A DNA stretch of 64,000 nucleotides from Alphaproteobacteria bacterium (GCA_965229605.1 OZ245892.1:446-64445); one strand, 5' to 3'; shown: positions 1 to 12,056, counted from the stretch's first letter. The notes: generated by a model not told the origin, from the sequence alone. Made by a program: numbers and translations.

Positions 1-1595
1 TGGCGACGTTGAGCCAGTCCGAGGGCCAGGCGCAAGTCCTGCCCCCGGCCCATGAGGTTTCTTTCGCGCAACTGTAATTGGGCCAGTGCTCCGTCCGAGG
101 AGGAATAGCCCGCCCCGACTGACAATTCACCGGTTGATTGTTCTTCAACCTCGACATTGACGACTGTTTTGTCATCTCCGCTGCCGGGGACATTGCTGAC
201 GTTGACCTTGCTGAAATAGCCGAGGTTCTGGATATTGCGCCGTGATCTGGAAAATTGGTCGCTGTTAAAGACATCGCCTTCGACCAGTTCAATTTCCCGG
301 CGGATCACTTCATCAAGGGTGCGGACATTGCCCTGAATATCCACCCGTTCGACAAAAACCCGGGGAGCTTCCAGAATTTCAAAGGTGATATCAATCGTTT
401 GTTCAACGGGATTGCGCTGGGGAACCGTGCGGACATTGACAAAGGCATAGCCTTCATTCCCGGCGGCGGTTGATACAAGGCTGACGGTATCGCTGACACT
501 GTCCGCATCATACCAGTCGCCTGTTTCAAGTTCGATGAGCGGTTTCAAGGGCTCTGCCGGTAGATCCGGAATCCGGGAGACCAGATCAAACGTGCCAAAG
601 CGATAGCGCGGGCCTTCTTCCAGCGTAAAGGTAATGAAGAAATCTTTCTGGTCTTCGGTGAGTTCGGCAACCGCCGAGGTCACACGAAAATCGGCAAAAC
701 CGTTGGCCAGATAATAGCGGCGCAATAATTCCTTGTCGAAATTCAGCTTGTCCGGATCGTAGGTGTCGCCAGAGCCAAAGAAGCGATACCAGCGGCTTTC
801 CTTGGTATTGATAACATCGGCCAAGGCCCCGTCGCTGAAATAACGGTTTCCGACAAAACTCACGCCGCGAATGCCGGTTTTCTCGCCTTCCTTGACTTCA
901 AAAACCAGGTCAATCCGGTTTTGCTCAAGCTCGATAATTTTAGGCGCAACCGTGGCCGCAAAGCGACCACTGCGCCGATACAGGTCCAGAAGCCGCTGCA
1001 CATCCGACTGAACGCGGGTGCGGGTATAAACAACGCGTGGGCGAAGCTGGACTTCAGCTTCAAGCACCTCGTCATCAATCTTGTCATTGCCTTCAAACAC
1101 AATGCGGTTGATGATCGGATTCTCGACCACCCGCACAACCAGAATATCGCCGCGCTGTTCAATATCGACATCCGCAAATAATCCGGTGGCAAAAATACGC
1201 TTGAGCGCGCCATTCAATACTTCCTGATTGACCCGCTCTCCAATCGTCAGGCCCAGATGGGCAATGACAGAAAAATCTTCAATCCGCTGTTCCCCTTCAA
1301 CCACAATATCGCGCAAGATAACGCCGTCTATTGGACCAATATCCAGCCCGGGACTGGTTGTCTGCTCGTCTGGATCAAGAGTGCCGCCAGCCGGGGCCGG
1401 AACAACAATAGCCGGATTCTGACCCGCTTGCGAATTTGCAGATTGGGCCTTGGCCGATTCAATAAAAGCAGATTCAACAAAAGCGGCCTGAGAAAGACCG
1501 ATCAAAGAAAGGGCCAAAAAGGAAAATATGCCTGTGCGTGCCGATAAACTGCCAGAGGATATCGACTTGCCAAGATTATTTTTTAGACCGATCAT
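1..1595 (-). CDS. bamA: Outer membrane protein assembly factor BamA, N-terminal part (POTRA region); runs off the left edge
   Basis: Absent from the ORF track because there is no stop in the window. My translation of the minus strand from the ATG at 1595-1593 gives MIGLKNNLGK..., a signal-like segment, then POTRA-like blocks (ILRDIVVEGEQRI, IINRIVFEGNDKI, IRGVSFVGNRYF, VFVERVDIQGNVRTLDEVIRREI). It ends with ERNLMGRGQDL at the window edge, typical of the POTRA5/barrel junction. Confidence 0.8.
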   Translation of the reverse strand, partial: MIGLKNNLGKSISSGSLSARTGIFSFLALSLIGLSQAAFVESAFIESAKAQSANSQAGQNPAIVVPAPAGGTLDPDEQTTSPGLDIGPIDGVILRDIVVEGEQRIEDFSVIAHLGLTIGERVNQEVLNGALKRIFATGLFADVDIEQRGDILVVRVVENPIINRIVFEGNDKIDDEVLEAEVQLRPRVVYTRTRVQSDVQRLLDLYRRSGRFAATVAPKIIELEQNRIDLVFEVKEGEKTGIRGVSFVGNRYFSDGALADVINTKESRWYRFFGSGDTYDPDKLNFDKELLRRYYLANGFADFRVTSAVAELTEDQKDFFITFTLEEGPRYRFGTFDLVSRIPDLPAEPLKPLIELETGDWYDADSVSDTVSLVSTAAGNEGYAFVNVRTVPQRNPVEQTIDITFEILEAPRVFVERVDIQGNVRTLDEVIRREIELVEGDVFNSDQFSRSRRNIQNLGYFSKVNVSNVPGSGDDKTVVNVEVEEQSTGELSVGAGYSSSDGALAQLQLRERNLMGRGQDLRLALGLAQRR

Positions 1596-2242: not shown

Positions 2243-3322
2243 TCAGGAAAAAGAGACGGCAGGACGATCTGTTTTTTGTGCCGCCGGTTGAATGGTGCCG
2301 AGTACTTCCGGGTCTTCCCCCAAGGCAGAAAGGCGGCTTAGAACATCCGCTTGTTGATCGGGCGCAACCATCAAAAGCAGGCCAAATCCGCAGTTAAAGG
2401 TGCGCCGGAAGTCAGAAAGCGGGACTTGCCCTTTTTGCTGCAACCAGGAAAAAACCGGCGGCAGAGGCGGCATTTGTATTTGCGCCATCAGGCCTTCTGG
2501 CAGGATTCGGGGCAAATTTTCTTCAATCCCGCCGCCCGTTATATGGCAAATACCATGAATGGCGGCTGGAAAGGCAGAGAGTAGCTCCAGCACCGGTTTG
2601 ACATAGATACGGGTCGGGGTCAGCAAAACCTCCCCCAAAGAATAGGTGCTGTTCCAGCTTGCCGGGGCCGGGGCGGTGACATCAACCCCTGTTTGTTCAA
2701 TGATTTTATGGATCAGCGAAAATCCGTTGGCATGCGGCCCGCTGGATTCCAGCCCGATGATCACATCGCCCGGCTGCACGCGCTCCGGGGTCAGTATTTG
2801 ATCGCGCTCTACGGCCCCCAGGATAAATCCGGCCAGATCATAATCATCGGCCTGGTAATGGCCCGGCATTTCTGCGGTTTCCCCGCCCCCCAGCGCGCAA
2901 CCTGCCAGCATACAGCCTTCAACAATGCCTTTTAAAACATTCTGGGCAATATCCGGCTGCAATTTCCCGCAGGCGTAATAATCAAGGAATAAAAGCGGCG
3001 TCGCCCCTTGCACGATCAAATCATTGGCACACATGGCGACCAGATCAATCCCTATCGTCTGGTGCTGGCGCAGTTTCAGGGCCAACCGCAATTTTGTACC
3101 CACCCCGTCGGTGGAGGTCAAAATAAGCGGGTCGGTAAATCCGGCAGCTTTGGGGTCGAATAACGCGCCAAATCCGCCAATGGCTGCCCCGGCTCCGGGA
3201 CGTCTGGTGCGAGCAGCAAGCGGGCGGATATAATCCACCAGCCGATTTCCGGCCGCAATATCAACCCCGGCCTGTTTATAGGTCAGGCCTTTTTGCGCAG
3301 GTGGGGGCGAAGGGTCTGTCAT
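2243..3322 (-). CDS. purM: Phosphoribosylformylglycinamidine cyclo-ligase (AIR synthetase)
   Basis: 359-aa ORF. LTYKQAGVDIAAGN, GGFGALF, DGVGTKL and HITGGG are PurM hallmarks. Confidence 0.95.
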   Translation of the reverse strand: MTDPSPPPAQKGLTYKQAGVDIAAGNRLVDYIRPLAARTRRPGAGAAIGGFGALFDPKAAGFTDPLILTSTDGVGTKLRLALKLRQHQTIGIDLVAMCANDLIVQGATPLLFLDYYACGKLQPDIAQNVLKGIVEGCMLAGCALGGGETAEMPGHYQADDYDLAGFILGAVERDQILTPERVQPGDVIIGLESSGPHANGFSLIHKIIEQTGVDVTAPAPASWNSTYSLGEVLLTPTRIYVKPVLELLSAFPAAIHGICHITGGGIEENLPRILPEGLMAQIQMPPLPPVFSWLQQKGQVPLSDFRRTFNCGFGLLLMVAPDQQADVLSRLSALGEDPEVLGTIQPAAQKTDRPAVSFS

Positions 3323-3486
3323 AAATATGTCCTGAATTTTACTGTAGGCCCTTTATGCCCGTTTATAAAGAACAAAAGCTGCCAAATGCAAAAAACATCG
3401 TCTCAAAAGCGGTTTTTCAAAAAATACCCTGGTCCGTTTCTGTTGATCCCATAAGGATTTTATCAAAAATACAAAAGGAGACACCA

Positions 3487-3918
3487 ATGAAATTCAGCCC
3501 TCTTTCCCCGAAAGCAACCCGCACCCCGATGATGGGGGTTCTGCTTGGTTTAGGCCTCGGCTTAGGCGTTATTCTGGCTGATAGCAGCACTGCCAAAGCT
3601 GACTCGCTTGATAACCTGATGCGCGCCCGGGCTTTGATGCTGTCGGACATGCTCAACCCGTCCTTGACCGCGCATGAACGGTCAGAGAAAATGCAAGGCG
3701 CCAAGCGGCGGATTGTTGACTATGAACGCCTTGCCCTGCGCGATGATGAGCTGAAAGGCAAAAACACCCCGACAATCCGCTGGGCTTTTTCAAACTATGA
3801 TCTGGCTTTTCTGGGCCATGCCTCGTTAGAGAAAAACCGGCTGCTGAGCGATCACTGGCTGGAGCAACTGGGCATCACCACCCATGCGATCATGAATGCA
3901 GACAGCGGGTGGAAGTAA
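3487..3918 (+). CDS. Hypothetical exported or anchored protein (first gene of the five-gene envelope operon)
   Basis: An internal ATG at 3487 is preceded by AGGAG (3476-3480). The N-terminus MKFSPLSPKATRTPMMGVLLGLGLGLGVILADSSTAKA looks like a signal peptide or anchor. I recognise no family. Confidence 0.5.
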   Translation: MKFSPLSPKATRTPMMGVLLGLGLGLGVILADSSTAKADSLDNLMRARALMLSDMLNPSLTAHERSEKMQGAKRRIVDYERLALRDDELKGKNTPTIRWAFSNYDLAFLGHASLEKNRLLSDHWLEQLGITTHAIMNADSGWK

Positions 3919-3919
3919 A

Positions 3920-4483
3920 ATGTCTCAAACATTTGAAGGCTTTGAGACTTCCCCGTCCTTGGCAGGGTCACCTATGACGACCTCTATTACGACTTCATGG
4001 GTCCAGCATTTTCTGGTTCTCTCCAGAGCAACCAGCTATCTGATGGGCGGGCTGATTCTGGTCCTGACCATCACCGTCATCGTCACCTCTCGCTCAATCG
4101 GCGATATCGCTCTATGGGGAGAACGGGTGCTTGGCGGCGCCTTCATCGGGCTGATGGCTGCCTTGACCCTGCTGTCCATCTATAGCTGGGTGCGCATGGA
4201 ACAGACTTGTGGCACTGCAGCGGCTAAAAGCTGGCTCGAAGCCGGACTGCAAGCCGCAGGCGGGATCACCACCGTGGCCCTGACCTATACGCTGCTTGGG
4301 ATAAGCCTCGGCATCGGGTCGCTATCCGATCAGGTGCTTACTCCCGACACTGTCCAGGATATCATCAAAGCCCTGACTGCTCAGTTCTCGCTGGCCTTTA
4401 TGACCACCGTCATCGGCTTGCCCCTTTCAACCGTCTTGCGGGCCTTGCTGATGATCGCTGCTGCCCGCCAAAACAACAAGTAA
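3920..4483 (+). CDS. Small polytopic membrane protein, MotA/TolQ/ExbB-like C-terminal half (divergent)
   Basis: The ATG at 3920 lies 1 nt after the upstream stop. There are four hydrophobic segments. The last two (TYTLLGISLGIG, then about 25 aa, then FSLAFMTTVIGLPLSTVL) resemble the ExbB/TolQ pair GLLGTVWGIM ... EALIATAIGLVAAIP, recalled from memory. Confidence 0.5.
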   Translation: MSQTFEGFETSPSLAGSPMTTSITTSWVQHFLVLSRATSYLMGGLILVLTITVIVTSRSIGDIALWGERVLGGAFIGLMAALTLLSIYSWVRMEQTCGTAAAKSWLEAGLQAAGGITTVALTYTLLGISLGIGSLSDQVLTPDTVQDIIKALTAQFSLAFMTTVIGLPLSTVLRALLMIAAARQNNK

Positions 4484-4511
4484 ATTAAAACAAAAAATAC
4501 AGGAGGCTAAA

Positions 4512-5171
4512 ATGAGCAAATATATGCCGGTCCGTGACCTTGCCTTTACCCTTACAGTTGCTGCCGCCTTGTCCTATTTGATTTATGATCAGGTTGGACC
4601 GGGAACAGTTGATCCCGTAGCAACCATGCCTGCTGTTCAGCCTGAAATAGAGCAACCCCCAGCAGAGAAGATAGAAGCAGAGAAGCCCGTTCCAGCAGAG
4701 AAGATAGAAAAAGAGGAGATAAAAAAAGAGGAGGTGGCTGCTGAACCCGCTATCGTGCAGCCCCCCCCAAAGGCACCCCCAAAGCAGGAGGAACCTCAAC
4801 AGGTTGCTGCTTTGCCAACGCCAACGCCAGTCGAACCAACGCCAGCGCAAACAGAACCTTCTGTTGCACAGGTCACCGTGGAAAAGCCTGAGCCCGTTCA
4901 ACCTGAACCAGTTATCTTGGAGCCGGTTATCTCGGAACCCGTGGCAGCAGATGCCTCGCCAGCAGATATACCGGAAACCGATATTATTGACGTTGCCCCC
5001 GTCAAGACTCATACTGTCGAAACGCATAGTGTCGAGACTCATAGCGTGCCGGATGCCCCGGCTGTTGTCCTTGCCGAGAACAGCACGCTGATGAGCGCGT
5101 CTGAACGCTATCAGGCATTGCAGAATCTGGCGGATGATATGGAAATGCTCTATCTTGAGCTGAGCCACTAA
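4512..5171 (+). CDS. Membrane-anchored Pro/Glu-rich repeat protein with an ExbD/TolR-like P-x-x-D transmembrane start
   Basis: A strong SD (AGGAGG) lies 8 nt upstream. The N-terminus MSKYMPVRDLAFTLTVAAALSYLIY is followed by EKIEAEKPVPAEKIEKEE and P/E/V-rich repeats, THTVETHSVETHSV, and a short helical tail. The antisense ORF 4485-5195 is W/C/F-rich and not protein-like. Confidence 0.6.
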   Translation: MSKYMPVRDLAFTLTVAAALSYLIYDQVGPGTVDPVATMPAVQPEIEQPPAEKIEAEKPVPAEKIEKEEIKKEEVAAEPAIVQPPPKAPPKQEEPQQVAALPTPTPVEPTPAQTEPSVAQVTVEKPEPVQPEPVILEPVISEPVAADASPADIPETDIIDVAPVKTHTVETHSVETHSVPDAPAVVLAENSTLMSASERYQALQNLADDMEMLYLELSH

Positions 5172-5182
5172 GGCAGAATGTG

Positions 5183-6427
5183 ATGCGTTCAGCAACCATA
5201 AAACATGTACCCATAGAACGTTTACAGGGACTCGTTATTCTTTTGATGGCGGTGGTGCTGGCGGCGGTTATTTTATATCGCGAGTGGCCGCAAGCAGCAA
5301 AGGACTTGCGGCAAGAAGCCTTGCTCCCGCACATAGAAGAGGTAGCTGAAATAGAGAAAGAGCCGGTTATTGAGCAACCACCAGCCGATTCCGGGGATTT
5401 TCAGGAAGCGGTCCGCATTATTTTGCCTCCGCCACCGGTGAGCCCTGTCGATCAGGATATCCCGCCCAGTTTATCAAAAGAGGTGCCAAAAGACGCTCCA
5501 AAAGAAGCTCCAGAAGAAACCTCTAAAGTGCAAGAGCCGCCTCAACCAAAAGCACCCCCTCAACCAAAAGCACCCCCTCAACCAAAGGAACCGACACAGC
5601 AAGCAGCAAAGCCCACCTCTTCGCCAAAGCCTGTTTCAATCACCCCTTTAACGCCGCTTCCTTCTCCAGAGCCAGCCTCAATAGAGCCAAGCCCGGCAGA
5701 ACCAGTTCAGGCTACACAAGTCAGCCAGCCTGTGCATGAAATTAAACCTTTAACTGCTCCAAAGCCTCAAGTGCAAAAAGAACAGCCGCAAGAAGAAATA
5801 GCAGAGCCGGTTGAAATCAAACCCGCCGCCCCCCCTTCGCCTCAACCTGCGCCGCCTCAAGAGATATATGAAGAAGCTGAACCTGCCCAAAAAATAAAGG
5901 CAAAAGAAATCCCGATAAAAGAAATACCGGTAAAAGAGATTCAGGCGAAAGGTCGTCCTCTATTGCGGCTGATGGAATATGGGCAAGGATCGGCCGTGAA
6001 TATCGCCTGGCCTGCCAATTCAAGCGCCATGACTCGCTTATATGATGAGCTTAACCGGTGCTACGGCATGGAATCGCTGGTCATCCATCAAGGACGCTTA
6101 TATAATAGGGCCGGTTTATTTGAGCCAAATCAGGATCGCTACAGCAGCTTTATGCGGGAAGTTCAGGGCCAGATTCCGCCGCGTGAGTCAGAGTTTTTGC
6201 GGAAAATTCCGGTCTCCGGTGCGCCTGTCCGCCTTTTCCCGCGCCGGGTTGATGCGATGCTACTTGGCGGCTTGCATCATTTGCTTGGGCAAGAGGCTAT
6301 GGAGGGTCATCACATTTCTGGCACCTATTCACTGTCGCAAAACCGCTTGCTGGTGACCGATTTGCGCCTTGACGGGGTGCAGGTCGAAGGCTCCGTTGAT
6401 CTCACCGCCATCCGCCGTTGCACCTAA
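5183..6427 (+). CDS. Membrane-anchored proline-rich protein with an unknown ~170-aa C-terminal domain (TonB/TolA-like architecture)
   Basis: The anchor is LQGLVILLMAVVLAAVILY. About 200 aa of P/E/K-rich spacer follows, including PPQPKAPPQPKAPPQPKEP and KEIPIKEIPVKEIQAK. The C-terminal part is non-repetitive. Start is ATG 5183, with GTG 5180 also possible. Confidence 0.6.
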   Translation: MRSATIKHVPIERLQGLVILLMAVVLAAVILYREWPQAAKDLRQEALLPHIEEVAEIEKEPVIEQPPADSGDFQEAVRIILPPPPVSPVDQDIPPSLSKEVPKDAPKEAPEETSKVQEPPQPKAPPQPKAPPQPKEPTQQAAKPTSSPKPVSITPLTPLPSPEPASIEPSPAEPVQATQVSQPVHEIKPLTAPKPQVQKEQPQEEIAEPVEIKPAAPPSPQPAPPQEIYEEAEPAQKIKAKEIPIKEIPVKEIQAKGRPLLRLMEYGQGSAVNIAWPANSSAMTRLYDELNRCYGMESLVIHQGRLYNRAGLFEPNQDRYSSFMREVQGQIPPRESEFLRKIPVSGAPVRLFPRRVDAMLLGGLHHLLGQEAMEGHHISGTYSLSQNRLLVTDLRLDGVQVEGSVDLTAIRRCT

Positions 6428-6441
6428 ACCCTGCATTAAAG

Positions 6442-7137
6442 ATGAAAATATTGCCGGACAGGATAAAACCTCTATGGGTGGTTTTTGCTCTATGTGTGAT
6501 GGTCCCTATGATCGGGGCCTGCCAGACAACCCGCCCCGTTTCCTATCAATCGCTGGATATACTAGAAGCATCGCCCGAAAAACCGGCAGACTCACGCACC
6601 GTCTATTATGAAACAATGGACCGCTATTATTTTCTGGCCCCGACCTGTGTATTTGTAAAAACCGTTGCAAGTGCCGATGATGTGCAGGCTCACCCCGCCC
6701 TGGTTGATGCGCTTGATCGCTATTTACGCAGCCGGTTTTCACGCGTCATTGCCCGCGATGAAGTGCAACAGCAGCTTCAGGACTATGCCTTGACAATGGA
6801 TGAACCCGACCAGCTTAAAACCTTTGCCAGATATGAATCCTGCCCGGCAGTCATGCAGGTTGAACCCTGGCTGGATCAGGATGTCGAACTCGGCATCTGG
6901 TATCAAAAGAAACTGGGCGTGGCTTTATCTCTTCAAGAGGTCGAAACTGGCGAGATTCTATGGCAGGCCCGCCATACCACCGGGCGTTCAGATGGCAGTA
7001 TCCCGACCAGCCCGCTTGGCCTGCTGGTTGGCGTTGTCCAGGCAGCCAATTTGCGCAGCGATGAAGAAGCGATTTATTCGCTTGCCGATGACATCATGCG
7101 CCGCATCATCAAAACGCTGCCAGATTTGCGGTATTAG
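6442..7137 (+). CDS. Lipoprotein, possibly DUF799/GNA1162-like (weak recollection-based call)
   Basis: MKILPDRIKPLWVVFALCVMVPMIGAC carries a lipobox (IGAC). The C-terminal ILWQARHTTGRSDGSIPTSPLGLLVGVVQAANL...IIKTLP is reminiscent of DUF799 lipoproteins. This is the last gene of the operon. Confidence 0.55.
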   Translation: MKILPDRIKPLWVVFALCVMVPMIGACQTTRPVSYQSLDILEASPEKPADSRTVYYETMDRYYFLAPTCVFVKTVASADDVQAHPALVDALDRYLRSRFSRVIARDEVQQQLQDYALTMDEPDQLKTFARYESCPAVMQVEPWLDQDVELGIWYQKKLGVALSLQEVETGEILWQARHTTGRSDGSIPTSPLGLLVGVVQAANLRSDEEAIYSLADDIMRRIIKTLPDLRY

Positions 7138-7140
7138 CAT

Positions 7141-7185
7141 GAAAGCAGAATATCTTGACATTTAACGGTGTCTGCTTTCTTTTCC
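7141..7185 (+). terminator. Hairpin plus T-run downstream of the five-gene operon
   Basis: GAAAGCAGA (7141-7149) pairs perfectly with TCTGCTTTC (7171-7179), followed by TTTTCC. The 21-nt loop is long for an intrinsic terminator. Confidence 0.45.
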
Positions 7186-7189
7186 TTAT

Positions 7190-7206
7190 TAGGGTCCTGA
7201 CCCTAG
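7190..7206. repeat. Short palindromic repeat TAGGGTCCTGACCCTAG (family shared with the ends of the 61979-62254 element)
   Basis: A 7+2+7 palindrome read directly from the sequence, located in an intergenic region. Confidence 0.8.
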
Positions 7207-7242
7207 CCTACATCAAATAAAACCGGAAAAGGAACATCGGGC

Positions 7243-8166
7243 ATGAGCAAACCTGTGATTGGATTTATTGGCATTGGTTATATGGGTGGCGGGATGGCTA
7301 AAAATATCGTCACCAAAGGCTATTCTTTGTATTTTATGGCCAATAAAAAGCGGGAAGTCGCTGAACGGCTGCTGGGGCTTGGCGCAAAAGAAGTCAAAAG
7401 CCCGCGCGCACTGGCTGAAGCCTGCGATATTGTTCATCTGTGCCTCAATAGCTCCCCGGCGGTGGAGGAGACCGTGATGGGCGAAAACGGCCTTTTGTCT
7501 GCCGGGCGCAAGGGGCTGATTATTATTGACACCTCGACCTCTGATCCGGTGTCAACGCTGCGTTTGGCTGCGCATTGCGCCAAGGTGGAGACGCATTTTG
7601 TTGATGCACCGCTAAGCCGCACCCCCAAAGAGGCCGAAGCTGGCACGCTGGATTGTATGATCGGGGCTGAGCCTGAAATTCTGGAAAAAATCTATCCGGT
7701 GATTGAAACCTGGTCCACCAATATCATTCCGATGGGGGCGGTTGGCAATGGCCACAAGATGAAGCTGGTCAATAATTTTGTCGGGATGAGCTATGCCATT
7801 TTATATTCAGAAGCCCTGGCTCTGGCCCGAAAAGCCGGGCTGAGCATTGAACAGTTTCACAGCGTGATCGGGTCAGGCCGGATGCGCAGTGGCTTTTATG
7901 ATACTTTCATGCAATATGTCCATGATGGCGACAAGAATGCCCATAAATTCACCCTTGAGAATGCGCTAAAGGATATGAGTTATGTGACAGCCCTTGCCAA
8001 TGATCTGGGGCTGAATAACCCGGTGCAAGCTTCGGTGCGCAATAGTTTTGCGCTGGCGGTCGCTGCCGGTCATGGCGGAGATTTCATCCCGCAAGTTTCT
8101 GATTTTATTGCCCGTATCAACGGGGTGCAGGGCGATAAGAACTCTACAGGAGGAGCCGATCAATGA
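7243..8166 (+). CDS. NAD(P)-dependent oxidoreductase, 3-hydroxyisobutyrate/6-phosphogluconate dehydrogenase-like family
   Basis: 307 aa. The N-terminal Rossmann motif is IGFIGIGYMGGGMAKN, with a GNGHKMKLVNN central motif. Confidence 0.85.
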   Translation: MSKPVIGFIGIGYMGGGMAKNIVTKGYSLYFMANKKREVAERLLGLGAKEVKSPRALAEACDIVHLCLNSSPAVEETVMGENGLLSAGRKGLIIIDTSTSDPVSTLRLAAHCAKVETHFVDAPLSRTPKEAEAGTLDCMIGAEPEILEKIYPVIETWSTNIIPMGAVGNGHKMKLVNNFVGMSYAILYSEALALARKAGLSIEQFHSVIGSGRMRSGFYDTFMQYVHDGDKNAHKFTLENALKDMSYVTALANDLGLNNPVQASVRNSFALAVAAGHGGDFIPQVSDFIARINGVQGDKNSTGGADQ

Positions 8167-8927
8167 GTGAAACCCATAAAAAAATCGGGCTGGTAACCGG
8201 GGCTGGAAGCGGAATTGGCCGGGCCTGCGCCCTTGGCCTGCATCAGGCCGGATTCCGGCTTTATCTGGTGGGGCGGCAAAAAGAGACCTTGCAGAAAACC
8301 TGCGATCTTGCGCCAGATGGCTCTGCGGATGATCTGATTATCCATCCGTGTGATTTAACCATTGATTCCGATGTTGACCGTTTGTTTGCCCGAATTGCCG
8401 ATGAATCCGGACGGCTCGATCTGGTGTTTAATAATGCCGGAACCAGCGCCCCGGCGATTTCCCCGGATGAACTCTCCATGGACAGTTGGCGCAAGGTGAT
8501 GGATATCAATGTCACGGCCCTTTTTAATTGTGCGCGCCAGGCCTTTGGCTTGATGAAAAAGCAGAACCCGCGTGGGGGAAGGATTATCAATAATGGATCG
8601 ATTTCAGCCCAGACCCCGCGCCCGTTTTCTGCACCCTATACGGCCAGCAAACATGCGGTCACGGGTTTGACCAAGGCCCTTTCGCTGGATGGCAGAGAAT
8701 TTGATATCTGTTGCGGGCAAATTGATATTGGCAATGCGGCCACCGATATGACGCAGCGGATGAATGACGGGGTCTTGCAAGCCGATGGAGAATTGCGCCC
8801 GGAACCCTGCATCAATGTCAAGGATGTGGCAGATGCGGTTTGTGCGATGGCGGCAATGCCTTTGACGACAAATGTTCTTTATTTCAATGTGATGGCAAAC
8901 CGGATGCCGTTTGTTGGTCGCGGTTAG
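8163..8927 (+). CDS. Short-chain dehydrogenase/reductase (SDR)
   Basis: 254 aa with TGAGSGIGRA, NNAG and YTASKHAV motifs. Its start overlaps the upstream stop (ATGA). Confidence 0.85.
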   Translation: MSETHKKIGLVTGAGSGIGRACALGLHQAGFRLYLVGRQKETLQKTCDLAPDGSADDLIIHPCDLTIDSDVDRLFARIADESGRLDLVFNNAGTSAPAISPDELSMDSWRKVMDINVTALFNCARQAFGLMKKQNPRGGRIINNGSISAQTPRPFSAPYTASKHAVTGLTKALSLDGREFDICCGQIDIGNAATDMTQRMNDGVLQADGELRPEPCINVKDVADAVCAMAAMPLTTNVLYFNVMANRMPFVGRG

Positions 8928-9846
8928 CATTCAGGGGGGTAGTAGATGACCCGGTAAGGATGCGGCAGAGGATTTTGATAATCACATGATCACTTAGATC
9001 AGGGGTGCAATAGAGGAAATTATCGACTGTTGCCAGGTCCGCCAGATCGTCATAGGCGGTGCAGTCAATTCTCTCCAGCCCGTCAATTTCTGGAGAATCT
9101 GTGGCGAGCAAGAAGCCGATTCCCTGATTGGCGGCGATCATGCGGATAAAGGCTTCGCGGCTGGACACTTCTGCCAGAATATTGGTGTCGAGGCCAAGAC
9201 GATGATGGATTTGATCTTGTAGAATACGGGTCAACGAGCCTTTGGTGCGCGATACAACTGGATATTGGGCGAGCATTTCCTTTAGCCCGTTTAGATCAAG
9301 TCTGTTCCGGGGTGTTTTCTTATCCGGCGACTTCAGGAGGAAGAGTTTGCTTTTTCCAAGCCAGATTCGGCTAAGCTGGTTGTTATCATTCAGATAGGCA
9401 TCATCATCAGAGCGATGGGCGATGAGGATATCAATTTTACCGGCCGCCAGCATTTCAACGAGATGCGCATGATTGCTGTCGAAGAAGCGCACGAGATATT
9501 TATCTGACACTTTATTGAGCGAATCGATGACGGGCAGCACCTGCGAGATGCCTTCAACGCCGAGGTTAAAGGTTTTGGTGCGTCTATTTTTTGCTTTTTT
9601 CAGCAGTTTGGTGATATTTTTCTCGGCTGAAAAGAGCGGGTCAGTTTTCTTTTTTAAGGAGCGGCCGATAGGGGTGAGTTCAATCGCATTGGCTTTGCGG
9701 CTGAATAACTGGATATTGTAATAGGCCTCCAGTTCCTTGATTTGTGTAGATATTGTGCTGGGGACGATATTGAGATACTGGGAGGCCGCAAAGACGCTGC
9801 CGTAATGGGCTGTCCAGTGGAAGCTTCTGATCCATTTATATTGCAT
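8884..9846 (-). CDS. LysR-family transcriptional regulator
   Basis: 320 aa. The N-terminal HTH is GSVFAASQYLNIVPSTISTQIKELE. Its 3' end overlaps the convergent SDR gene by 44 nt. Confidence 0.85.
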   Translation of the reverse strand: MQYKWIRSFHWTAHYGSVFAASQYLNIVPSTISTQIKELEAYYNIQLFSRKANAIELTPIGRSLKKKTDPLFSAEKNITKLLKKAKNRRTKTFNLGVEGISQVLPVIDSLNKVSDKYLVRFFDSNHAHLVEMLAAGKIDILIAHRSDDDAYLNDNNQLSRIWLGKSKLFLLKSPDKKTPRNRLDLNGLKEMLAQYPVVSRTKGSLTRILQDQIHHRLGLDTNILAEVSSREAFIRMIAANQGIGFLLATDSPEIDGLERIDCTAYDDLADLATVDNFLYCTPDLSDHVIIKILCRILTGSSTTPLNANRDQQTASGLPSH

Positions 9847-9900: not shown

Positions 9901-9920
9901 GCCCGTATCTCTTTACGGGC
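9901..9920 (-). terminator. Small hairpin enclosing the stop codon of the SPOR-domain gene
   Basis: GCCCGTA (9901-9907) pairs with TACGGGC (9914-9920). On the minus strand it is followed only by TTTACAAT, a weak U-tract. Confidence 0.35.
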
Positions 9921-11268
9921 GAATCAGAAAACAGTCCTGGCCACGGGCACGGATATTTGCACAGAGATTGATCGCCGCCCCTTCATCGGGAAGCGGACCA
10001 ACCCGCACCCGAAAATAGGGCTTGCCGTTGACCTGCACGGGCTCGATGCCCAGGGTGAGGCGTTGAAGCAGGTCCGGGTGCAAGGCCTGTTGCGCCCGCC
10101 AGAAGGATTCGGCTTCTTGCTGAGATTTCAGGGCCGCCAGCTGGATTCGCCAGGGGTTTGGCCCGCCTGCCGGGTTTTGGAGGGCCGGGTTTTGGAGAGT
10201 TGTATTTTGTGGAACTGGATTTTGGGAAACTGGCGATAAACTGGCTTGTTGTTGAGCGGCTTGTTGTTGCGCTACCTGCTGTTGCGATTCAGCTTGAGGG
10301 GCAACACGCGGGGCGGGCAAACTGTCATCGGGTTGCGGCACCGCCCCATTTTGAGAAACGGCGGCGTTATCTGGCGCCGCAGGTTGCGGGTCTGTAATCG
10401 CTTCTGGCTCCAGCTGAGAACCAAAGGCCGCAGGCAGCCTTGTTTGATCAATACGTTCGGCCTCGACAGCGATGTCCTCGGGGGACAAGGGCGGCGGATT
10501 GACAATACTGGGCAAGTCCGGGCTGGATAATTCTCCGGTATCTCCTGAAGGCGCCCGCTCGCCTTGCCGCTCCAGCGTGCCAAGAAGCGGACGCATCGGG
10601 TCTTCCGGGGCTGGCAGCAAGGCTTCAATCTGGTCCGGGTCTTCTTGCCCGTCAAGCTGGCCATCCAGCTGGCTGTAAATTTGTGGCACCGGATCAGGGA
10701 TCGGCAACCCGCCCGGGGCGTCCGGCGCACTTTTAATCGGCCCGGTGGCCTGCAAGGTGGGGGCGGCAGCTTCTGACCCTTTCAGCACCCCCTGATTATA
10801 GGCATACCAGACTCCGGCCCCGATCAACAATGTGCCAAGCAGCATAATTAGCAACAGGAAATAATTGATCCCGCCAGCCGATGCGGCAAGCAGCGGGGCC
10901 TGCAAAGAGCTTTTCAAAACTGAAGACTGGCCTTTTTCGGTTGTTTGGGATTTTGACGTTTGGGCTCTTTGTTTTTGGGGTCTTGCCGGTTGAGAGGCAT
11001 CGGACGCCCGGTCGTTTCTCTCTTGAGAACTGGCCTGATAATTGTCTTGGTAATCGTCTTGATAACTGGCATCCTGGCTGGAACCTATACGCTTGCCAGG
11101 CCTCAGCAAATCATCAGACTGTCCGCCATCATCCAGATCATGCGGGAGATTACGTTGGGCCATATCATGTCGAGTTGGGGCACCCGGTCTTTTGTTTTGA
11201 ACCGATGTCAGGCTGCGTTCTAATTCTTGTAAATCATCCATAAGAGGTCGCTTTAGAAAATTCGTCAA
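9913..11268 (-). CDS. SPOR domain-containing protein (septal peptidoglycan binding), with a low-complexity linker
   Basis: The C-terminus WRIQLAALKSQQEAESFW...YFRVRVGPLPDEGAAINLCANIRARGQDCFLI is SPOR-like. There is a central TM segment and Q/P-rich repeats. The start is uncertain (TTG 11268 or ATG 11241). Confidence 0.75.
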   Translation of the reverse strand: MTNFLKRPLMDDLQELERSLTSVQNKRPGAPTRHDMAQRNLPHDLDDGGQSDDLLRPGKRIGSSQDASYQDDYQDNYQASSQERNDRASDASQPARPQKQRAQTSKSQTTEKGQSSVLKSSLQAPLLAASAGGINYFLLLIMLLGTLLIGAGVWYAYNQGVLKGSEAAAPTLQATGPIKSAPDAPGGLPIPDPVPQIYSQLDGQLDGQEDPDQIEALLPAPEDPMRPLLGTLERQGERAPSGDTGELSSPDLPSIVNPPPLSPEDIAVEAERIDQTRLPAAFGSQLEPEAITDPQPAAPDNAAVSQNGAVPQPDDSLPAPRVAPQAESQQQVAQQQAAQQQASLSPVSQNPVPQNTTLQNPALQNPAGGPNPWRIQLAALKSQQEAESFWRAQQALHPDLLQRLTLGIEPVQVNGKPYFRVRVGPLPDEGAAINLCANIRARGQDCFLIRP

Positions 11269-11357: not shown

Positions 11358-12056
11358 CTAATATTTGCGCAATAACCCCACCAGACGCCCTTGTATCCGC
11401 ACATCGCCCGGCGGATAAAAATGCGTTGCATAATGCCGGTTTGCAGGCTCAAGCGCGATTTGATTATTTTGAACGTTAAACCGCTTCAACGTGGCTTCGG
11501 ATTCCTCAATCAGGGCGACAACAATATCCCCAATCTCGGCCCGTTCGCGCCGTTCAATCACAACCGTGTCGCCGTCAAAGATACCGGCCTCAACCATCGA
11601 ATCCCCTTCAATTTCAAGGGCATAATGATCACCCTTCCCCAGCATGGTCCCCGGCACTTCAACCATCATGCTTTCATCGCGCAAGGCTTCAATCGGGGTG
11701 CCCGCCGCAATCCGTCCATAAAGCGGAATCTGTATAATCGGCCCGGAGGTCGGACGGAGCATCGCTGGACGGCTGCCAAAAGTCTCCCGGCGTGCCTTGT
11801 CAGCCCGGCGAGTGCGAATCGGCAAGGCTTCCCGGTCTATATTTTCAGGCAGGCGCAAAACCTCCAGCGCGCGGGCGCGATTAGGCAAGCGACGCAAAAA
11901 TCCACGCTCCACCAGCCCTTCCAGCAGCCGATGAACGCCTGATTTCGATTTTAAACGCAATCCATCGCGCATTTCATCAAAAGACGGCGAAACCCCGTAT
12001 TTTGCCAGATGAGTATGGACCAGAATCAACAGGTCATATTGTTTGCGGGTCAGCAT
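11358..12056 (-). CDS. lexA: LexA repressor
   Basis: 232 aa. [13 protein letters not shown]...[29 protein letters not shown] is the winged helix. The C-terminal S24 peptidase motifs are GDSM and the later KR. Confidence 0.9.

Follow-up and report, generated by a model that had tools for sequence, protein, structure and literature searches.

A conserved and unannotated five-gene envelope module with a Ton/Tol-like layout and a probable, remote stator-type subunit in Alphaproteobacteria

To our knowledge, stator-type motors (MotAB, ExbBD, TolQR, GldLM, ZorAB and AglRQS) are the only route by which Gram-negative bacteria bring inner-membrane energy to the cell wall or the outer membrane. The earlier families of this type each revealed new biology, in motility, uptake, division, secretion and phage defence. 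Tol-Pal is near-universal in Proteobacteria, and an SHLS (Ser...His) motif has been described for the binding of TolA and TonB to the motor (PMC12204202). A survey of force transducers of the periplasm, published in 2025, reported new vWA-type transducers beside bona fide tolQ genes and predicted further undiscovered systems driven by 5:2 motors; the family analyzed here is not described there (PMC12204202). We analyzed a stretch of 64,000 nucleotides (nt) from an Alphaproteobacteria bacterium (GCA_965229605.1 OZ245892.1:446-64445), referred to as the window, and within it a block of five genes, G1 to G5, next to purM. The block is conserved and unannotated and has a Ton/Tol-like layout with a probable, remote stator-type subunit. 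We read it as a self-contained envelope module of Ton/Tol-like kind, with G2 as stator-type subunit, G4 as spanner and possibly an ion drive, a reading whose chances we judge to be evenly balanced.

Like Tol-Pal, the block is a single operon coding for a multi-pass hairpin protein, a single-pass partner, a long spanner with a globular C-terminal domain and an outer-membrane lipoprotein, and the hairpin signature of ExbB/TolQ is also present in G2. However, G2 is without a PF01618 (MotA_ExbB) match, lacks the large cytoplasmic domain of stator A subunits and has an extra N-terminal transmembrane segment (TM). Similarly, G3 lacks the Asp and the periplasmic domain of TolR, G4 lacks SHLS and the TolA-III fold, an exported protein (G1) comes first, and none of the five products has a TolB beta-propeller or an OmpA-like Pal domain. 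G4 resembles TonB in its TM, proline-rich linker and C-terminal domain, and G2 has a Gly/Thr hairpin like that of ExbB, but the C-terminal domain of G4 shows no TonB_C match in sequence or fold, no TonB-dependent receptor is linked to the block and the Asp of the axle is missing. In sequence, Zorya comes closest, as the only significant hidden Markov model (HMM) matches of G2 are to ZorA. Unlike ZorA, G2 has no long cytoplasmic tail; no ZorB-like peptidoglycan-binding partner and no ZorC or ZorD accompany it, and the context is conserved chromosomal housekeeping and not a defence island. The Agl-Glt gliding and Nfs machineries of Myxococcus and the vWA transducers (PMC12204202) also combine a TolQ-like motor, proline-rich non-canonical TonB-like transducers and lipoproteins in a multi-gene complex, but they rely on bona fide TolQ/TolR homologues that have the Asp, and on TonB_C or vWA domains; G1-G5 contain none of these. 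Features that mark Tol-Pal, Ton and Agl-Glt (PF01618 above threshold, the axle Asp and the TolR/ExbD, TonB_C, TolA-III, TolB or Pal domains) are lacking, and in spite of its layout we read the module as neither Tol-Pal nor Ton.

The five genes are co-directional on the + strand, are separated by 1, 28, 11 and 14 nt and diverge from purM, as described in the initial annotation, and their positions are collected in Table 1. They are real genes and not chance open reading frames (ORFs), since dN/dS against two relatives ranges from 0.07 to 0.37 across all five, which is purifying selection, and dozens of genomes share the synteny of the block. The two relatives, loci L087 and L088 from ENA metagenome assemblies, keep the divergence of purM and G1 and share the purM, G1-G5 and dehydrogenase synteny, with amino-acid identities of 80-91% in one and 90-100% in the other. 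Scans of the five window proteins against Pfam and NCBIfam gave zero matches, and with PADLOC included the sole match was that of G2 to ZorA. Family-profile searches of PDB sequences with G1, G2, the C-terminal domain of G4 and G5 found nothing. For G1, the start at 3487 is likely, as an AAGGAG box precedes it and the gene calls of relatives agree; position 3355 is merely an in-frame ATG upstream. The start of G2 is ambiguous, the alternative in Table 1 being the gene call in a near-identical relative, and G3 is preceded by an AGGAGG Shine-Dalgarno sequence. The operon promoter presumably lies between purM and G1, a region (3323-3486) in which no convincing sigma-70 match was found. The closing hairpin reported earlier was recovered at 7141-7179 with a folding free energy (dG) of -16.9 kcal/mol (z = -3.0 against shuffles, 3 of 200 of which fold equally well). 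Together with the following UUUUCCUU it probably serves as the intrinsic terminator at the end of the operon; a simple terminator scan did not pick it up because of the long loop.

G2 has four helical membrane segments according to hydropathy, composition and an AlphaFold (AF2) model, which is all-helical with two long terminal helices and a predicted local distance difference test score (pLDDT) of 87. Among the profile matches, the ZorA2 model of PADLOC (PDLC00636, annotated MotA/ExbB/TolQ) covers residues 87-186 of G2 with E = 3.8e-4 and is matched by 31 of 40 members of the G2 family (best E = 1.5e-5). Six further ZorA models are also matched by the family, and no other PADLOC family is matched by more than one member. 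The family alignment revealed invariant Gly, Thr and Pro residues in the last two helices, ALTYTLLGISLGIG ... AFMTTV(V/I)GLP, and the signature LxGxxxGI...AFxTTxxGL aligns residue for residue, with nearly equal spacing, with LFGTVWGIM ... ALLATAIGL of ExbB/TolQ. Written as the regular expression [LIVF]xGxxxG[IVLM]-x(18-32)-A[LFMI]xxTxxG[LI], the signature was found in 8 of 11 true ExbB/TolQ proteins and 38 of 40 G2 members, and a background of 6,106 ORFs yielded no match; in the window a TolQ/ExbB-type motif occurs in G2 and nowhere else. The top 25 Foldseek matches of the G2 model were almost all TolQ, ZorA, MotA, PomA and ExbB chains, with the highest TM-score among them (0.40) for ZorA chain 8vvn_C. 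Glu107, at the cytoplasmic end of TM3, is near-invariant. We consider the G2 hairpin to be probably homologous to the stator A-subunit superfamily.

G3, encoded 28 nt after G2, resembles the axle (B) subunits in having a single N-terminal TM (RDLAFTLTVAAALSYLIY). The TM is followed by a periplasmic linker rich in Pro, Glu and Val (20% Pro) and by a conserved amphipathic helix at the C-terminus (LMSASERYQALQNLADDMEMLYL). The TM is the most conserved segment of the protein, with the consensus M(R/K)FLxFNxxVxxALxYLF in relatives, and the linker is acidic, Pro-rich and variable among them. In other genomes the start of G3 frequently overlaps the stop of G2, and the translation of the two genes is often coupled. 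The clade of the window departs from the consensus, with RDLAFT (residues 8-13, 4533-4550) in place of (R/K)FLxFN. Asp9 of the window protein was considered as axle Asp and rejected: the aligned residue in relatives is Phe, and Asp9 itself is clade-specific and located at the membrane boundary. An antisense ORF of 236 amino acids (aa) overlapping G3 (4485-5195, - strand) is spurious. The linkers of G3 and G4 carry in-frame tandem repeats (4661-4858, 5010-5044, 5475-5586 and 5902-5937) with periods of 6, 12, 15, 18 and 21 nt, for example PPQPKA three times, THSVE two to three times and KEIP(I/V) three times, and linker lengths vary between close relatives.

In its AF2 model, G4 is composed of a TM (residues 11-33), a disordered region of ~215 aa (34-249) and a C-terminal domain (250-412). 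The linker contains 24% Pro. G4 also has the conserved motif LPPPP, which is present as LPxPP in 62 of 65 relatives. The C-terminal domain is an alpha/beta domain of ~165 aa with pLDDT ~90 and two invariant Cys residues. Neither Foldseek searches of PDB and BFVD (best E = 1.2) nor searches of Pfam and PDB sequences matched it, and TonB_C and TolA-III were not found. A homologue search with this domain alone (window 5933-6424) gave no matches, the word-index step having probably missed relatives. The full-length query gave 24 homologues sharing the domain in a list swamped by proline-rich candidates, and the depth of the alignment is thus limited. An SxxxS pattern is found in the TM of 47 of 65 relatives and is missing from the clade of the window (TM at 5222-5278). 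The clade deviating at the TM positions of G3 and G4 is the one with the stand-alone module beside purM.

G1 has a signal-like N-terminus followed by ~100 highly conserved residues (ENLERERA...RL.DLERMVLRD...NYDLTFLVHA...DHWL), without a known family in Pfam, NCBIfam or a profile search of PDB sequences. It lies directly upstream of G2 in all 83 related loci examined and has a dN/dS of 0.07. G5 contains the lipobox IGAC (Cys26, Gln at +2), two further invariant Cys residues and the conserved motifs R.DGGLPLSP and S..DD..RR...LPD. The invariant Cys pairs in the C-terminal domain of G4 and in G5 fit a periplasmic location. G5 resembles the GNA1162-like family (PF05643, formerly DUF799) in being a lipoprotein of similar size with weak family-level matches, found in 12 of 40 G5-family members (best E = 3.2e-3). 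However, every one of these matches is below threshold; the window protein has none, and the family profile has no match among PDB sequences. The DUF799 assignment suggested earlier for this gene has faint support, at family level. The topology in that annotation was reproduced throughout, with G1 signal-like, G2 of four TM, G3 and G4 single-pass and Pro/Glu-rich, and G5 with a lipobox.

The G2 family comprises 974 close homologues of ~165-200 aa each, all unnamed and Pfam-free. In GTDB, taken with one genome per species (~185,000 species genomes), relatives of G2 are encoded in 264 stretches (at least 264 species). Most hosts are marine Rhodospirillales-like metagenome-assembled genomes (MAGs); others are Terasakiella pusilla DSM 6293, Terasakiella spp., Curvivirga aplysinae, Magnetovibrio and the gammaproteobacteria Glaciecola siphonariae and Colwellia. 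A relative is also carried by Magnetococcus sp. PR-3. Iterated HMM searches of 83 loci recovered the single-strand order G1-G2-G3-G4-G5 in at least 54 of them; the loci without the full order are mostly cut contigs. The five genes co-occur widely, a point on which the initial annotation had made its reading depend. Pairwise BLASTP comparison of neighbours gave, for example, 4e-37 for G1, 5e-46 for G4 and 2e-38 for G5. Between G4 and G5, some genomes encode an additional secreted protein (~250-320 aa) that has a signal peptide and belongs to no obvious family (L033 9116-10069, L036 9274-10236, L042 9144-10088, L048 9176-10111), and others lack G5 after G4. Possible double copies of the cluster lie on separate contigs (L004 and L068 in MAG SI074_bin97, L013 and L061 in MAG SRP200020_co5_401, and L010 and L011), which points to paralogous systems, or perhaps to mixed bins.

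Conserved genes on the same strand precede G1 in 78 of 81 related loci, so that in most genomes the block is the distal part of a longer cluster. Two long contigs contain the full cluster, in which G1-G5 form the 3' end of a co-directional series of 15 genes (L090, 1013-12749; Table 1) or of 16, with one extra small unknown protein (L089, 1-12637). The cluster of T. pusilla DSM 6293 spans L030 702-9561. Most families of the upstream part have no match in Pfam, NCBIfam or PDB, and the profiles of U1, U4 and U6 found nothing among PDB sequences. The presence of a lytic transglycosylase, peptidoglycan-binding proteins and lipoproteins suggests that the larger cluster is a large wall-crossing apparatus, which would need the transglycosylase. 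U6 (L030 702-1148, L052 678-1139) has a very conserved N-terminal TM (AMTEIALALAMGFFSIMVLT) with an invariant Glu12. By eye this TM resembles the axle helix of ExbD/TolR with Glu replacing Asp; assignment to ExbD was rejected for lack of Pfam or PDB support, and the likeness is kept merely as an eyeball lead. U1 was also considered as a second MotA and rejected, being a signal-anchored coiled-coil protein. In the relatives of the window and in one complete alphaproteobacterial chromosome, G1-G5 occur alone, and the block therefore behaves as a separable module. On the alphaproteobacterial chromosome OZ245897 (L002 1-5975), the stand-alone block directly follows a gene whose called product has 22,634 residues and no Pfam match. 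The literature on DUF4384, GNA1162, stators and force transducers yielded no paper describing the cluster.

The oligomeric state, ion coupling, binding partners and cellular function that we infer for the module are as follows. G2 would be a stripped-down and very divergent channel subunit of the MotA/ExbB/TolQ/ZorA kind, which has kept the hairpin and has no large cytoplasmic domain. By analogy with those proteins it may form oligomers in the inner membrane, with the highly conserved TM helix of G3 inside or next to the assembly. G4 would be anchored in the inner membrane and reach across the periplasm with its proline-rich linker. Its family-specific and probably disulfide-bonded C-terminal domain would be offered to partners in the periplasm or outer membrane, of which G5, a lipoprotein that may be GNA1162/DUF799-like, and the exported G1 are the likely ones. 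G4 would then be moved or put under tension by ions flowing through G2/G3, and energy from the inner membrane would in this way be coupled to a process at the peptidoglycan or the outer membrane. An alternative coupling site may be formed by Glu107 of G2 with Arg/Lys2 and Asn7 of G3, for which the Glu of GldL and the Arg of GldM in the GldLM structure would provide a parallel. A bolder form of this mechanism takes G2/G3 as an unrecognised branch of 5:2-type ion motors, with a four-helix wheel and an Asn axle (Thr here), perhaps aided by Glu107, that powers the ~15-gene apparatus through the novel-fold G4. We hold it tentatively, as possible and somewhat doubtful.

Several results weigh against a driven, stator-type module. 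The regular expression for the hairpin was written post hoc from both sequence sets and is therefore supportive and not independent evidence. In the Foldseek search, the best match of G2 had E = 0.078 (probability 0.75), with none at or below 1e-3 and low TM-scores of 0.2-0.4. PF01618 gave no match to the window G2 at the gathering score and was faint in just 7 of 40 homologues (best E = 0.057). No bridging match to it was found in a scan of ten divergent G2 representatives; one divergent representative matches at E = 0.13 over profile positions 22-112, which is the right region. Alignment by hhalign of the G2 family with E. coli TolQ, with TolQ plus ExbB and with an alignment of 11 ExbB/TolQ sequences from plasmids gave nothing significant (probability <1% for the last), the best local piece pairing TM2 of G2 with TM1 of TolQ, which is topologically sensible. 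The G2 profile matches no solved stator among PDB sequences. Against 1.84 billion proteins it retrieved 185 cluster representatives only and did not reach ExbB, TolQ or MotA, so the family is compact and isolated. The proposed likeness of the last two TM of G2 to MotA/TolQ/ExbB is supported by the ZorA HMM and the signature, with a Foldseek list that points the same way without a significant match, and not by PF01618 or hhalign; none of the three outcomes that the initial annotation had named as refuting its reading was seen outright.

Further points of the same kind concern the partners of G2. At the polar position in the TM of G3, 69 of 69 relatives carry Asn and the window protein has Thr13. 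An acidic residue within the membrane occurs at this position in none of the relatives, and therefore the proton-binding Asp defining MotB, ExbD, TolR and ZorB is missing. No periplasmic domain of ExbD or OmpA type was found in G3 with Pfam, NCBIfam or PADLOC. The initial annotation had placed G3 as the anchored partner in a Tol/Ton-like order, which the missing Asp does not support. Nor is a TolA/TonB-type coupling of G4 to the motor supported, as its TM in the window (LQGLVILLMAVVLAAVILY) has no Ser or His and hence no SHLS motif. The 64-kb window contains none of the 10-11 genes that lie upstream in the clusters of other genomes, and no partner outer-membrane protein or substrate of the module was identified. 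Because of the missing Asp in G3, the missing Ser...His in G4 and the negative profile comparison with ExbB/TolQ, we can only infer that the proton motive force may drive the module.

The same observations allow a passive tether or scaffold, in which G3 and G4 span the periplasm as spacers from an inner-membrane anchor, the places of G5 and G1 are at the outer membrane or peptidoglycan, the membrane is merely organised by a G2 of remote or convergent stator likeness, and no ions flow. A TM in G3 without acidic residue, a G2 without large cytoplasmic domain and links to stators that are all weak or sub-threshold would agree with it, and two long Pro/Glu-rich spacers suit a ruler or tether. We nevertheless regard it as rather unlikely, as the G2 family recurrently and specifically matches seven ZorA models and no other membrane family consistently, the background for the hairpin signature shared with ExbB/TolQ is zero, and the invariant Thr, Gly and Pro residues in TM3 and TM4 of G2 with the near-invariant Glu107 exceed the needs of an anchor. 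It is also unlikely, and slightly more so, that G2 is a true stator channel with U6 in place of G3 as its axle, so that G3 and G4 are peripheral transducers and U6 and the other upstream genes lie elsewhere in this genome. The larger cluster conserves U6, which has an acidic residue in its TM and an ExbD/TolR-like size, and the upstream cluster genes lie directly before G1 in most related loci. However, it has no ExbD, other Pfam or PDB match, lies seven genes from G2, whereas G3 abuts G2, and is not found within the window, and G1-G5 stand alone at this locus in relatives and in one complete chromosome. That the block is the divergent Tol-Pal or Ton system of this genome is very improbable: its order loosely parallels tolQ-tolR-tolA-(tolB)-pal, but Pfam, NCBIfam, PDB sequence and Foldseek searches gave no TolQ, TolR, TolA, TolB, Pal, ExbD or TonB_C signal, in agreement with what had been judged by eye, and the G2 family is confined to 264 stretches as against the near-universal Tol-Pal, which we take to be present in canonical form in the Glaciecola and Colwellia lineages as well.

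The neighbours of the block and of purM (1796-2230, - strand; 7243-8927, + strand; 8884-9846, 9913-11268 and 11358-12056, all - strand) are ordinary housekeeping genes. By synteny with the annotated relatives L087 and L088 they include a holo-ACP synthase, an NAD-binding dehydrogenase, a short-chain dehydrogenase/reductase, a SPOR-domain protein and LexA, and one neighbour is, from reading its sequence, presumably a LysR-type regulator.

Table 1. Features of the G1-G5 block in the window and genes of the larger cluster in related genomes
Feature	Position	Strand	Description
purM	2243-3322	-	divergent from G1
purM-G1 divergent intergenic region	3323-3486	+	AAGGAG Shine-Dalgarno sequence 7 nt before the ATG of G1
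G1	3487-3918	+	143 aa
G2	3920-4483	+	187 aa; alternative start 3974
G3	4512-5171	+	219 aa
G4	5183-6427	+	414 aa
G5	6442-7137	+	231 aa
Stem-loop and following sequence	7141-7187	+	stem-loop 7141-7179; probable intrinsic terminator
Cluster gene 1			glycine-zipper/17-kDa-antigen-type lipoprotein
Cluster gene 2			unknown protein
Cluster gene 3			PG_binding_1 protein
Cluster gene 4			U6, single-pass, ~147 aa
Cluster gene 5			SLT lytic transglycosylase
Cluster gene 6			U4, unknown, ~546 aa
Cluster gene 7			U3, unknown, ~184 aa
Cluster gene 8			DUF4384 protein, OmpA domain in some
Cluster gene 9			U2s, lipoprotein, ~190 aa
Cluster gene 10			U1, coiled-coil exported protein, ~300 aa
Cluster genes 11-15			G1-G5

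If the Ton/Tol-like reading with an ion drive is true, the family would have a minimal wheel and an axle without the supposedly universal Asp, and would test which features of 5:2 motors are indispensable. A transducer domain and partners outside any known fold or family would be further additions. The ~15-gene apparatus, if powered in the way suggested above, would be found in marine Alphaproteobacteria, Magnetococcales and some Gammaproteobacteria. The module would also provide a handle on a 'dark' 15-gene envelope cluster that hundreds of species, most of them marine, carry; among these, the cultured hosts Terasakiella pusilla DSM 6293 and Curvivirga aplysinae are available for genetics.

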